From Candidatus Levyibacteriota bacterium (GTDB taxonomy: Bacteria; Patescibacteriota; Microgenomatia; Levybacterales; UBA12049), in contig JAJDCG010000002.1 of the NCBI GenBank assembly GCA_029260965.1, forward strand, positions 190,707-246,801: 56,095 nucleotides of DNA, in the 5' to 3' direction. Of this stretch, positions 15,510 through 17,291 are shown piece by piece. Below the pieces are notes generated by a model. That model saw only the letters and a program-made list of their open reading frames with translations, was not told the origin of the DNA and made no database searches. Position 1 is the stretch's first letter. Each line of letters begins with the position of its first letter. Made by a program: the position numbers and the translations under genes.

Positions 15510-16166
15510 CTAATTTTGATTCAATTCAGCTTCAATTATGGTTTTGAATTGATCATACGGAAGCCCTCCTGCTTGCCTCTTGCCATTAATAAAAAAAGTC
15601 GGAGTAGAGCGAACGCCAGCAGCGTTACCATCTGCGATATCTGAGTTTATTCTCTCGCTAAGAGATTTGTTTTTAGCATCGGCATTAAATTTTTCTACAT
15701 TCAGTTGTAGTTTTTCAGCATAACTTACGAATATATCTTTTGCATTTTTTTTGTCGGACCATTCTGCTTGATTGGCAAAAAGCATATCATGCATTTCGAA
15801 AAATTTTCCTTGCTCTCCTGCTGCCTCTGCTGCCAGTGCAGCATCGAATGCATTGGGGTGGATTGATGAAAGAGGATAGTTCCTATAAACAAACTGCATT
15901 CTATCACCGTAATCATCTTTTAATTTTTTTACTGTTGGGTGTGCTGCTTTGCAAGCGGGACATTGGAAATCACCAAATTCAACAAGAGTTATCTCTGCGC
16001 TTGCTGACCCTGTTTTGTGACTATCATTTTTGATGAGCAAATTTTCGTCAACGGTCTCTGATACCTCAGGTGTGCTCTGTTTATTTCCAATAAAAAAAAT
16101 AGCTCCTACTATTATGAGTACTGTGGCAATTCCGATACCAATTAAAACTTTGATTTCTTGGTTCAT
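15510..16166 (-). CDS. DsbA-family thiol:disulfide oxidoreductase, membrane anchored
   Basis: EFGDFQCPAC and GVRSTPTFFING. Confidence 0.92.
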   Translation of the reverse strand: MNQEIKVLIGIGIATVLIIVGAIFFIGNKQSTPEVSETVDENLLIKNDSHKTGSASAEITLVEFGDFQCPACKAAHPTVKKLKDDYGDRMQFVYRNYPLSSIHPNAFDAALAAEAAGEQGKFFEMHDMLFANQAEWSDKKNAKDIFVSYAEKLQLNVEKFNADAKNKSLSERINSDIADGNAAGVRSTPTFFINGKRQAGGLPYDQFKTIIEAELNQN

Positions 16167-16253
16167 GGAATTATACTAGCATTTTGTTGGTATTGCTGCA
16201 ACAATTAGCTTTTTATTGTTAAGTTTAAGTTGCAGGTGTAAATTTATTTTCAC

Positions 16254-16299
16254 AAAAAACCTCCTGAACTTTTCCCAAAAACAAAAGTCCAAGAGGTTT
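16254..16299 (-). terminator. Intrinsic terminator
   Basis: AAACCTCTTGGACTTTT pairs with AAAAGTTCAGGAGGTTT using 2 G-U wobbles that work only on the minus strand; U-tract follows. Confidence 0.75.
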
Positions 16300-16382
16300 A
16301 TCTTCCTGAAAAATGATTCGGACAGTAAATCACTTCACCCATCATCCCGCATATTTTATTTAAAATAATGCCGAATAAGGTT
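16254..16382 (-). ncRNA. Candidate structured RNA (sRNA or orphan riboswitch-like leader)
   Basis: TTGACA(16417-12)-17-TAGCAT(16394-89) promoter, a three-way-junction fold and a terminator; family not recognised. Confidence 0.5.
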
Positions 16383-16442
16383 AATAACATGCTAAGTTAC
16401 GACATAATTTTTGTCAATTGATGCAAAGAGAATTAAACTATA

Positions 16443-17291
16443 TCAAATTGTAGAAAAAGTAATTTTTAGTCCTACGTGGTCGGATAAATAAACCAATTTG
16501 CTTTTTTTGATGATATATCTACCTGTAAATATATGTGAACGGTTAGTAATTTGAATTCTTGATTCATTTGAACTAATAAAAATATAATCTAATCTTCTCG
16601 CCTTTTTAGGTTTAGGTAAAAAAAATTGATGCATTGTTGGTGATTCATGTTTGGCGAATGTGTCAATGAGATCACCAGATTTAATAAAGGTTTTATAAAG
16701 TGTAGATTTTTTATCTAGGTTAAAGTCTCCAGTTAAGATCGTAAATCTACTCTCATTAGATAAGTTTTTAATTAGTTTTAAGATTTGAACCAGTTGAGAT
16801 TTTATATATTTATAAAATCTATTTTTATTCCCCCAGTCAAAGTCAGAGTTTTGAGTTAGATGTGTATTTAAAATAAAAAAATTCATATTCGTTGTTTTTG
16901 CAAAAAGAACACCACTCCTTCTCAAAATTGCAACAATTGATGAGTTGAAGACAGTTCCTCTATCTTGGAAATTTTGATAAATTGGTTTTTCCAAAGGGAT
17001 TTTAGATAGGATTACCAGTCCACCACGTGGACCTAGAATCGAGCGTACATAACAACTGTATTTATACCTCGTAAGTCTTGATTTAATTGCTGTTAAGAAT
17101 TTATAGGTATGCACCTCCTGGAGGGAGATGATGTCAGCATTCTCTTTCAATAACACGTCAGATATTTTTTTACCTCGTTCTATTGAGTCCCAAGACATTA
17201 AAAAACCTTTGAATGAATCAAAATTGAAAAGCCCCATGGTATTGAGGCTTGTGATTGTAATTTCATTTTTTTTATTTGTTGTTTTGTTCAT
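16443..17291 (-). CDS. Endonuclease/exonuclease/phosphatase (EEP) family protein
   Basis: DIISLQEV, NTHL, GDFN, RLDYIF, LSDH. Confidence 0.9.
   Translation of the reverse strand: MNKTTNKKNEITITSLNTMGLFNFDSFKGFLMSWDSIERGKKISDVLLKENADIISLQEVHTYKFLTAIKSRLTRYKYSCYVRSILGPRGGLVILSKIPLEKPIYQNFQDRGTVFNSSIVAILRRSGVLFAKTTNMNFFILNTHLTQNSDFDWGNKNRFYKYIKSQLVQILKLIKNLSNESRFTILTGDFNLDKKSTLYKTFIKSGDLIDTFAKHESPTMHQFFLPKPKKARRLDYIFISSNESRIQITNRSHIFTGRYIIKKSKLVYLSDHVGLKITFSTI

Follow-up and report, generated by a model that had tools for sequence, protein, structure and literature searches.

Leaders in which transcription ends prematurely close to the promoter, i.e., transcription attenuators in the broad sense, have been found by terminator surveys and by Term-seq. 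The RNA unit described here lies on the minus strand of a 56,095-nucleotide stretch of DNA from a Candidatus Levyibacteriota bacterium (positions 190,707–246,801 of contig JAJDCG010000002.1, assembly GCA_029260965.1), which we will refer to as the window and in whose coordinates all positions are given. The unit resembles such leaders in that a predicted strong promoter is followed by a short structured leader and an intrinsic terminator, which stands ahead of promoterless co-oriented genes, and also in that its sensor parts are lineage-specific and fast-evolving. It differs from them in that no alternative antiterminator fold was found, in the conservation of two loops amid covarying stems, and in that the genes which it precedes in related genomes (its cargo) are gone from the genome considered here. 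Next to nothing is, to our knowledge, known of how genes are regulated in Patescibacteria, and the part of the literature that our searches reached (including PMC2965389) contains no account of this or a similar RNA in Levybacteria. The results presented below indicate that the unit is real, conserved and uncatalogued, and that it is most likely of a known kind, a premature-termination leader, possibly also acting as a small RNA.

Other described systems share some features with this unit. In the pyrBI operon of Escherichia coli, a ribosome on a leader frame (pyrL) that spans the terminator prevents the terminator hairpin from forming. The unit is similar in that a short frame beginning in a conserved hairpin (H1) reaches the terminator (T) in 21 of 23 lineages and extends for 41–65 codons through it in the genera g80, g92, and g53; no antiterminator is needed in either case, and U-rich tracts are present before and inside the terminator. 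In contrast to pyrBI, the cargo of the unit consists of secreted surface proteins, a Shine-Dalgarno sequence is mostly lacking, and translation of the frame is putative, a test of its openness having failed its control. The leaders trpL, pheL, and hisL likewise combine a short frame, a terminator and an operon, and some copies of the unit are nearly leaderless, as in genus g25, where an AUG is located 12 nt past the −10 hexamer. However, unlike these leaders, the frame in the window contains one Cys codon (0–6 in relatives) and no tandem regulatory codons, and the unit has neither a 2:3 antiterminator nor a match to a leader family in Rfam. With T-box leaders, the unit has in common a codon-like UGY in one loop, UGGR in the other, and a leader that ends in a terminator, but it lacks the T-box sequence, Stem I and the antiterminator, its UGGR is in the terminator loop, and it is far smaller. 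Lastly, SreA and SreB of Listeria are riboswitch-derived terminated leaders that double as small RNAs. For the present unit also, the premature product of a cis-acting leader would be a discrete small RNA, and an orphan copy would make only that product; unlike SreA and SreB, it has no known ligand-binding aptamer or trans target.

Promoter and Predicted Transcript

The unit is housed in a 276-nt spacer (16167–16442) between two genes of the minus strand, and a sequence search finds it once in its own genome. A sigma-70-type promoter is predicted on the minus strand at 16389–16417, comprised of the −35 hexamer TTGACA (16417–16412), a 17-nt spacer and the −10 hexamer TAGCAT (16394–16389), which match 10 of the 12 consensus positions. 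In this AT-rich region, promoter-like sites are no scarcer than would be expected by chance (12 found vs. 9.7 ± 2.5 expected), and the promoter is credible because it is conserved rather than because of the consensus scan: the pattern TTGAC[AT]-17-TAnnnT is present at the same place in all 11 loci that have upstream sequence, and also in loci that were found later. A second conserved element, the box GATATAGTT (16436–16444, minus strand), is located 18 nt ahead of AATTGACA. In several genomes, this one included, the box and the stop codon of the upstream gene overlap; here, that gene codes for a protein of the endonuclease/exonuclease/phosphatase (EEP) family. Among the aligned relatives, G001, G002, G026, and G025 retain the box, as do further loci (L027–L038 and L082–L094). 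The distance between GATATAGTT and AATTGACA increases from 18 to 28 nt in genus g2, which corresponds to one additional helical turn, and such a shift is as expected for what may be an UP-like element or the binding site of a protein.

Taken together, the promoter and the terminator predict a primary transcript of ~130 nt (16254–16385, minus strand), with its start at about 16385–16382. The minus-strand sequence folds at −44.4 kcal/mol (z −5.3), with none of 200 shuffled sequences as good, whereas the plus strand gives −20.5 kcal/mol (z −2.55), with 3 of 200 shuffles as good. As the minus strand folds far better, the assignment of the transcribed strand by wobble pairs, proposed in an earlier note that was made from the sequence alone, holds. 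The minus-strand promoter and the U-tailed terminator ending at 16254 that were recognized in the same note are likewise present, and both are conserved in relatives.

Structure of the Unit in the Window

The minimum-energy fold of the transcript consists of three serial hairpins: a 5′ hairpin, H1, and T. The 5′ hairpin (16339–16380, minus strand) is lineage-specific. It includes the helix P2 (GCAUUAUUUUA/UAAAAUAUGC) of the earlier note, which survives within it, whereas the other two helices proposed there, P1 and P3, are replaced by H1. The three-way junction in which these helices had been arranged does not agree with the serial fold and is not conserved, and forcing P1 to form costs 7.2 kcal/mol (−37.2 vs. 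−44.4 kcal/mol). The P1/P2 region has no counterpart in G001, a genome of the same genus that has kept the promoter and H1 and has a different terminator.

H1 (16310–16336, minus strand) has a 10-bp stem (GAAGUGAUUU/GAAUCAUUUU) that closes the 7-nt loop ACUGUCC (16326–16320), and it is stronger than expected from shuffled flanks (P 0.021). The GUG at 16333–16331 in H1 is the counterpart of an invariant AUG, GUG, or UUG in relatives. It would open a frame of 11 codons (16298–16333, minus strand; MIYCPNHFSGR), viz. GUG-AUU-UAC-UGU-CCG-AAU-CAU-UUU-UCA-GGA-AGA-UAA, which has no clear Shine-Dalgarno sequence. Its stop codon (UAA, 16300–16298) is 2 nt ahead of the delimited T segment, and in-frame AUGs are also present at 16345 and 16342. 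The statement in the earlier note that the stretch contains no sizeable open reading frame is correct, this short frame notwithstanding.

The terminator T (16254–16299, minus strand) has a 5′ arm starting at 16299/16297, a 3′ arm reaching to 16257/16259 and a U-tract at 16259–16254; its loop region is GUUUUUGGG, with UUGGG within it. T has 15 pairs in the fold of the whole transcript and 17 + 2 pairs when folded alone (−21.7 kcal/mol), followed by six U. A stable hairpin containing G+C and followed directly by a U-tract on the transcribed strand identifies T as a predicted intrinsic (Rho-independent) terminator. It was omitted by a simple terminator scan with a loop limit of 3–8, presumably because of its 9-nt apical loop and a bulge.

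The mutually exclusive antiterminator that had been suggested for this RNA yields only −3.9 kcal/mol locally, compared to −21.7 kcal/mol for T; when it is enforced, the whole RNA folds at −27.3 rather than −44.4 kcal/mol, and its pairing is at the level of shuffled sequence (−6.6 vs. −5.4 ± 2.2, P 0.28). In 25 representatives of the unit, the pairing of the segment after the conserved CUGYCC motif of the H1 loop with the 5′ half of T has a mean z of 0.11, with 2 of 25 below −1.64. As the pairing is no better than that in shuffled sequence, a classical antiterminator is unsupported.

Conserved and Variable Features of the Unit

The motif CUGYCC, with AUG, GUG, or UUG located 4–11 nt ahead of it, is present in 38 distinct sequences, and the elements M043, M045, and M048 are without it. 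A contiguous H1 hairpin is strong (P < 0.05 vs. shuffled flanks) in 11 of these 38, including the copy in the window, and compensatory variants of its stem are AUGCGUU/AACGUAU in G017 and GUGGUU/AACCAU in G128. For the stem of T, our own count over 40 distinct rows, from which reverse-strand matches of the palindromic terminator had been filtered out, shows changes on both sides in 14 of 16 pairs, with 92.7% of the cells canonical. In an alignment of 30 rows, which was fitted to the model and hence favours the structure, H1 above all, 91.0% of the cells are paired, compared to 78.5 ± 0.8% in shuffles (0 of 500 as high) and 42–56% in slid controls; compensatory changes are seen in 20 of the 24 pairs (shuffled mean 10.8), viz. 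in 8 of 8 pairs of H1 and 12 of 16 of T. The loop of T is UUGG[AG] in 39 of 42 elements (own count), even where the sequence of the stem is wholly different. The exceptions are G022, with GUGGAG, and G001 and G090, which have other loops.

The stretch from the promoter to H1 is variable, ranging from 0 to about 190 nt (0–10 nt in genus g25, about 60 nt here, and about 100–190 nt in g80, g92, and g53). In g25, the whole leader ahead of T is 32–50 nt long, the 5′ hairpin is missing and H1 abuts T directly.

Additional conserved structures were observed around the unit in some genera. In g80, g53, and g92 (L089–L094, L139, and L143), a conserved three-helix domain extends from the predicted start to ~90 nt downstream, in the order AUGGGUAA, a CCGUCAACGG hairpin, a second hairpin, AUCAGGCAA and then CCC-N-AGAAGUGC. 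This domain has an aptamer-like look and belongs to no Rfam family, and in its RNAalifold structure the 5′ UGGGUA is paired with the CUGCCC motif farther downstream. More conserved leader hairpins are present between T and the cargo gene in L082–L088, L030, L032, and L040 and in L089–L093, L139, and L143. In g25 and g2, the arrangement GGCUGGG...GAAGUGC...CCCAGCC is found 10–150 nt past the terminator, and a downstream GCACUUC can pair with its apical part; the GAAGUGC motif also occurs ahead of H1 in g80, g92, and g3. In g80 and g92, T is followed by CCCGCUCUCA...UAAGAGCGGG, with U runs after some of these.

Distribution of the Unit in Related Genomes

With the spacer as query, BLAST against 60 related genomes revealed two conserved blocks in four of them, each from a different genus; one block corresponds to the promoter region and the other to the terminator. 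The terminator pattern ACCTCTTG-N5-9-GTTTTTGG is found a single time in each of 12 genomes out of the 194 in the family, which represent 5 of its 89 genera, with a reversed control giving two matches, and a stricter form of the pattern identified 13 further metagenome stretches that carry the element. A loose pattern for the promoter box matched 70 of the 194 genomes and its reversed control also matched many; the true members were chosen by eye and no count is drawn from it. This pattern led to members in g25, g80, and g53, whose terminators differ in sequence. A covariance model (R1), which was built on an RNAalifold structure of only six pairs and is thus mostly a sequence profile, matched 23 of 151 family genomes, from 13 of 89 genera, once each, with the match in G084 appearing spurious, and it added the genera g92, g17, g3, g22, and g56. 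In a sample of the order, R1 matched 19 of 99 genomes from the family that has the unit and none from two sister families (0 of 49 and 0 of 2).

In total, the unit was examined in 35 genomes of the family (12 genera) and in 8 distinct metagenome versions, with one copy per genome. Judged from these sequences, it is a single-copy RNA module whose occurrence is limited to one family within Candidatus Levybacteria (Patescibacteria). Several of the records that carry the element (L101, L103, L105, L108, L111, L112, L116, and L120) bear titles such as "uncultured Gammaproteobacteria bacterium." These labels look wrong, because the element, its neighbours and the contigs are the same as in genomes of the Levybacteria family.

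Comparison with Known RNA Families

Membership in families of Rfam 15 was assigned where the covariance-model score reached the gathering threshold of the family. At these thresholds, the whole window contains only nine tRNAs, all of them located elsewhere. In the region 16100–16500 (401 bases), a search at E ≤ 10 produced 19 sub-threshold matches, all of them noise, the best of which is mir-186 (21.9 bits vs. a cut-off of 70). These weak matches are mostly to eukaryotic microRNA and snoRNA families, with a few bacterial small RNA families and one ribosomal S15 leader, which is the sole leader-type match (12.5 bits vs. a cut-off of 39.5); no riboswitch, T-box or amino-acid leader family is found among them. 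Twelve related loci, searched at E ≤ 1, gave four irrelevant matches. The view that the minus strand here encodes a structured RNA that has so far lacked annotation and has a promoter and a terminator of its own is borne out, and the RNA is absent from Rfam. The loose kinship with glycine aptamers that had been noticed earlier is unsupported, there being no Rfam match.

Some specific candidates were also considered and rejected. A signal recognition particle (SRP) RNA came into question because the genome has no detectable one, but neither a disguised SRP RNA nor a 6S RNA accounts for the unit: the families RF00169, RF01854, and RF00013 have no match in the genome, three serial hairpins are the wrong architecture for a long hairpin with domain IV motifs, and no Ffh was found. 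For antitermination of the BglG/SacY type, which acts at RAT sequences, the required CAT_RBD domain (PF03123) is missing from 5 of 5 genomes; the sequence UUACUG...CAGGAA, which suggested this candidate, resembles RAT only in part. A small RNA dependent on Hfq or CsrA is similarly disfavoured, since Pfam models for Hfq (PF17209) and CsrA (PF02599) have no match in 5 of 5 genomes, while controls respond.

Genes Downstream of the Unit

At 26 of the 42 loci, T is followed within 450 nt by the start of a co-oriented gene that has a Shine-Dalgarno sequence and codes for a signal peptide, and nine of the other 16 loci stop at contig ends. The gap between T and this gene contains no promoter-like site (at least 9 of 12 consensus positions) at 20 of the 26 loci, and the unit's own promoter scores 8–10 of 12. 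The cargo is of three kinds. One of these is a ~200-amino-acid protein with two repeats rich in Asn, Thr, Ser, and Gly, which follows the unit in g25, g82, and g80 and is the second gene in G178 and G085. The second comprises TasA/camelysin-like proteins with SipW-type signal peptides (g2, g26, g3, g56, and M039), and the third secreted proteins of 378–455 amino acids (g80 and g53), of which the 455-residue protein of G178 has Gly/Asp-rich repeats; in g92, the gene that follows is similar to these at its N-terminus. A Pfam search of the cargo proteins found no family for any of them. At locus L109, the same type of promoter directly drives the homologous TasA-like gene, without H1 and T.

In the genome that contains the window, a tblastn search with eight cargo proteins found nothing. 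The copy in the window is followed only by dsbA, which begins 87 nt past the U-tract, has a promoter-like site matching 7 of 12 positions and lacks a Shine-Dalgarno sequence. Because the cargo families are absent and only dsbA follows, this copy is read as orphaned or retargeted. Of the two possibilities raised previously, a small RNA or an orphan switch, the notion of an orphan fits best, since in relatives the unit precedes genes for secreted proteins that are missing here, whereas the riboswitch fold that went with it does not stand.

The secreted ~200-amino-acid repeat family deserves a brief description of its own. Copies of it are encoded at L036:603–1208(−), L037:1566–2165(+), L125:673–1275(+), L126:1956–2561(+), and L127:1881–2471(−). 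In most copies the repeats are separated by a Cys-x-Cys motif, and the family is found downstream of the element in four genera.

Proposed Interpretation as a Premature-Termination Leader

The reading that we favour, to which we give an even chance of being right as a whole, is that the family is a promoter-proximal attenuator, that the copy in the window is either orphaned or serves dsbA, and that ribosome occlusion is the most likely means of control. The near-consensus promoter and the conserved upstream box would drive a short transcript, and in most relatives the module would stand at the head of the 5′ leader of genes that encode secreted surface or fibre proteins and have no recognizable promoter of their own. 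Because the cargo genes behind T lack such promoters, T would act as a promoter-proximal gate at which transcription ends prematurely. From the arrangement of these sites, we infer that transcription starts and stops at the predicted places and that the downstream genes depend upon read-through. The copy in the window would mainly yield the terminated RNA of ~130 nt, being orphaned or serving only dsbA.

How read-through would be controlled is a more tentative matter. Control by ribosome occlusion with no antiterminator is an appreciable possibility, to which we nevertheless assign well under an even chance. While translating the short frame from its start in H1 as far as T or across it, a ribosome would physically block formation of the terminator hairpin, and the sensitive step would be at the Cys and Pro codons that are conserved in the loop of H1. 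Only the first letter varies in the start-type codon at the 5′ base of H1, and this codon is kept even where its pairing partner has been lost (G149, G153, and M040). In 28 of 39 tabulated sequences, G152 counted among them, the codon and UGY-CCN (Cys-Pro) share a frame, with 5, 8, or 11 nt between them. The number of lineage representatives in which the frame reaches the terminator (21 of 23) exceeds the 12.4 expected (P about 1e-4). In g80, g92, and g53, the frame crosses T, and its stop codon has the same position within the following hairpin in 8 of 8 sequences. The stop codon is 2 nt ahead of T in the window, at +7 inside the 5′ arm in 17 sequences, and past T in g2, g3, g80, and g92. When the linkers of the long frames in g80, g92, and g53 were shuffled, the probability of an open frame was about 0.43–0.65 per sequence, and only for G085 was it 0.027, so that this test is weak. 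A kissing interaction between the H1 loop (YCC) and the T loop (GGR) would allow, by eye, just 3–8 pairs, and as both motifs are invariant it shows no covariation.

A number of observations weigh against this interpretation. The openness of the frame is not frame-specific, because 20 of 23 representatives also have an open +1 control frame (P 4e-4), compared to 7 of 23 for the +2 frame; since the +1 control behaves alike, the test is not counted as proof of translation. Variability shows no bias by codon position (35, 37, and 37 additional base types at the first, second, and third positions), CUGYCC is read in three frames across lineages (Cys-Pro, Leu-Pro-Cys, and Thr-Ala-Gln), and the frame is not fixed with respect to T, with 7, 3, and 3 lineages in the three frames. 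A Shine-Dalgarno sequence is missing at most of the start codons, although ordinary genes in these genomes have it. H1 is clear by the strict test in just the 11 of 38 distinct sequences noted above and weak in part of g25, and occlusion does not explain the conserved terminator loop UUGGR. With regard to the cargo, the scan of the gaps for promoters was a simple consensus match that could miss real promoters. Lastly, several loci keep the unit with no co-oriented gene downstream, which fits an independent RNA gene; among them, G001, G131, and G128 retain it while facing a convergent sortase operon.

Alternative Explanations

This last observation is the natural starting point for the explanation that we regard as the chief competitor, though by itself unlikely, viz. 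that the unit is a stand-alone, trans-acting small RNA of ~130 nt which would bind other molecules, or pair with them, through CUGYCC in the H1 loop and UUGGR in the T loop, its place ahead of genes for secreted proteins being secondary. The persistence of the unit at the three sortase loci, the absence of the cargo families from the genome of the window, the conserved promoter of its own, the strong terminator (−15 to −23 kcal/mol with 4–9 U), the lack of an alternative antiterminator, the conservation of both loops while the stems covary, and the variable 5′ part, as many small RNAs have, are all in keeping with it. However, the 20 of 26 co-oriented genes that have no promoter-like site of their own, and which start 20–380 nt past T, are not accounted for in this manner. 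Hfq and CsrA are missing from the five genomes searched, the unit is present in single copy in each genome with no sign of a partner locus, and when the H1 loop region was scanned for duplexes with 554 crudely called start regions of this genome, no target was convincing; the strongest duplex (−16.1 kcal/mol) was at a mis-called start inside a DnaK-like frame. The two loops could instead be read in cis, by a protein or an RNA that sets termination at T, and a factor-dependent attenuator of this kind we consider improbable. In its favour, UGY is present in all 38 distinct elements with H1 (although the motif search required UGY), the T loop remains UUGG[AG] in nearly all elements despite changes in most stem pairs, and H1 directly abuts T in g25. 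Against this, no candidate protein is at hand, as the CAT domain of BglG-type proteins is missing, along with Hfq and CsrA, in 5 of 5 genomes; G001, G090, and G022 are without UUGGR, and four elements are without the H1 motif. In its boldest form, this explanation would have the anticodon of tRNA-Cys on the UGY of the H1 loop and its U73-CCA end on the UGGR of the T loop. R is only A or G, both of which pair with U, and the tRNA-Cys(GCA) of this genome has a U discriminator. But the match to this tRNA was noticed post hoc, covariation cannot probe it because tRNA-Cys is expected to keep U73, there is no T-box match in Rfam, and UGGR is within the terminator loop and not in an antiterminator bulge. 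A minimal tRNA-Cys sensor, in which UGY reads the anticodon, UGGR pairs with U73-CCA and the stacked H1 and T form a ruler, is accordingly a long shot; if true, it would achieve a T-box-like function with ~70 nt and no T-box architecture, in control of surface-protein genes of ultra-small bacteria.

The remaining explanations are likewise hard to reconcile with the data. That the unit is the mRNA for a tiny Cys-containing peptide (M-x-x-C-P...), with the peptide as the product, is very unlikely, only slightly less so than the tRNA-Cys sensor is. The conserved start codon in frame with Cys-Pro in most lineages, the spacings of 5, 8, and 11 nt that preserve this frame, and the 2–6 Cys in 22–45 codons in the relatives G093, G094, and G177 would agree with such a product; but the variability is flat over codon positions (35/37/37), the conserved nucleotides are read in three frames, a Shine-Dalgarno sequence is lacking, the predicted peptides range from 10 to 65 codons and can be aligned only among close relatives, and in many lineages the frame crosses the U-tailed terminator, which would cut the message. 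For the ligand-sensing aptamer of the earlier note, i.e., an orphan riboswitch with a three-way junction and a terminator/antiterminator, the probability appears slighter yet. The complementary segments on which it was based do exist, P2 is part of the minimum-energy fold, and g80, g92, and g53 have a different, aptamer-like three-helix 5′ domain. Nevertheless, besides the cost of enforcing P1 and the lack of an Rfam family, P3 is in competition with H1, which is conserved, G001 and g25 both lack the P1/P2 region, and the antiterminator is at the level of chance both here and across the 25 representatives. The least probable of all, to a degree where we give it hardly any credence, is that T is merely the terminator of the EEP gene and the promoter a chance site. 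T does follow the EEP stop codon at a distance of 144 nt, on the same strand, and promoter-like sites are common in AT-rich DNA, as noted above. However, the hexamers, their spacing and the upstream box are conserved across genera, the unit is ~5 kb away from the EEP gene in G181 (g80), the neighbour is a different, divergent gene in G129, and distant Levybacteria have the EEP gene followed directly by a uppP-like gene, with no unit between them.

Significance of the Unit

The unit represents a testable RNA family, in which the promoter is fixed, the hairpin and the terminator have invariant loops, and the terminator covaries; it is suitable for inclusion in RNA family libraries, so that such loci are annotated. 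The cargo genes of the relatives (those for TasA/camelysin-like fibre proteins, the 200-amino-acid repeat proteins and the large secreted proteins) are the ones that probably contribute most to the cell surface, and their products are plausible host-contact factors for episymbionts. If the premature-termination reading is correct, the copy in the window is a leader after the loss of its cargo, which has kept its promoter and terminator and can only make a small RNA; cargo loss would then be one route by which small RNA genes may arise.

Other Observations on the Genome and the Neighbouring Genes

In the genome of the window (G000) and its relatives, and outside the window itself, the SRP pathway seems to be missing from the order. 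The small model of SRP RNA found nothing in the six genomes tried, and the large model nothing in five. The M domain of Ffh was not found in G000, and a six-frame scan of G000 revealed no credible motif of the DTAGR type. A GTPase of the SRP54 type (Ffh/FtsY) was not detected above noise in five genomes, nor in 61 genomes of the order that are at least 90% complete, where the sole matches are three partial P-loop matches of 25–28 bits; the controls respond in 12–14 of 14 known genomes. The part of the literature covered by our search contains no report of SRP loss in this order. Its absence, if real, would be unusual for free-standing bacteria.

The upstream neighbour of the unit is the EEP gene (16443–17291, minus strand; Pfam Exo_endo_phos, 4.4e-14), which adjoins the unit in the genera g1, g2, g25, g26, and g82, and not everywhere. 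Downstream of the unit is dsbA (15510–16166, minus strand), which encodes a DsbA-like protein with a thioredoxin fold and an N-terminal membrane anchor (Pfam Thioredoxin_4, 3.8e-28, and DSBA, 3.2e-15). The order of the element followed by dsbA is also seen in one metagenome relative (L045/L047), where dsbA likewise lacks a Shine-Dalgarno sequence. Ahead of dsbA, the weak promoter-like site mentioned above, TTGCAG-17-TAGTAT (within 16166–16215, minus strand; 7 of 12 positions as counted by eye), which was not reported by the promoter scan, would place the start of transcription at the A of the dsbA ATG and thus give a leaderless mRNA; a weak leaderless promoter for dsbA is therefore possible.

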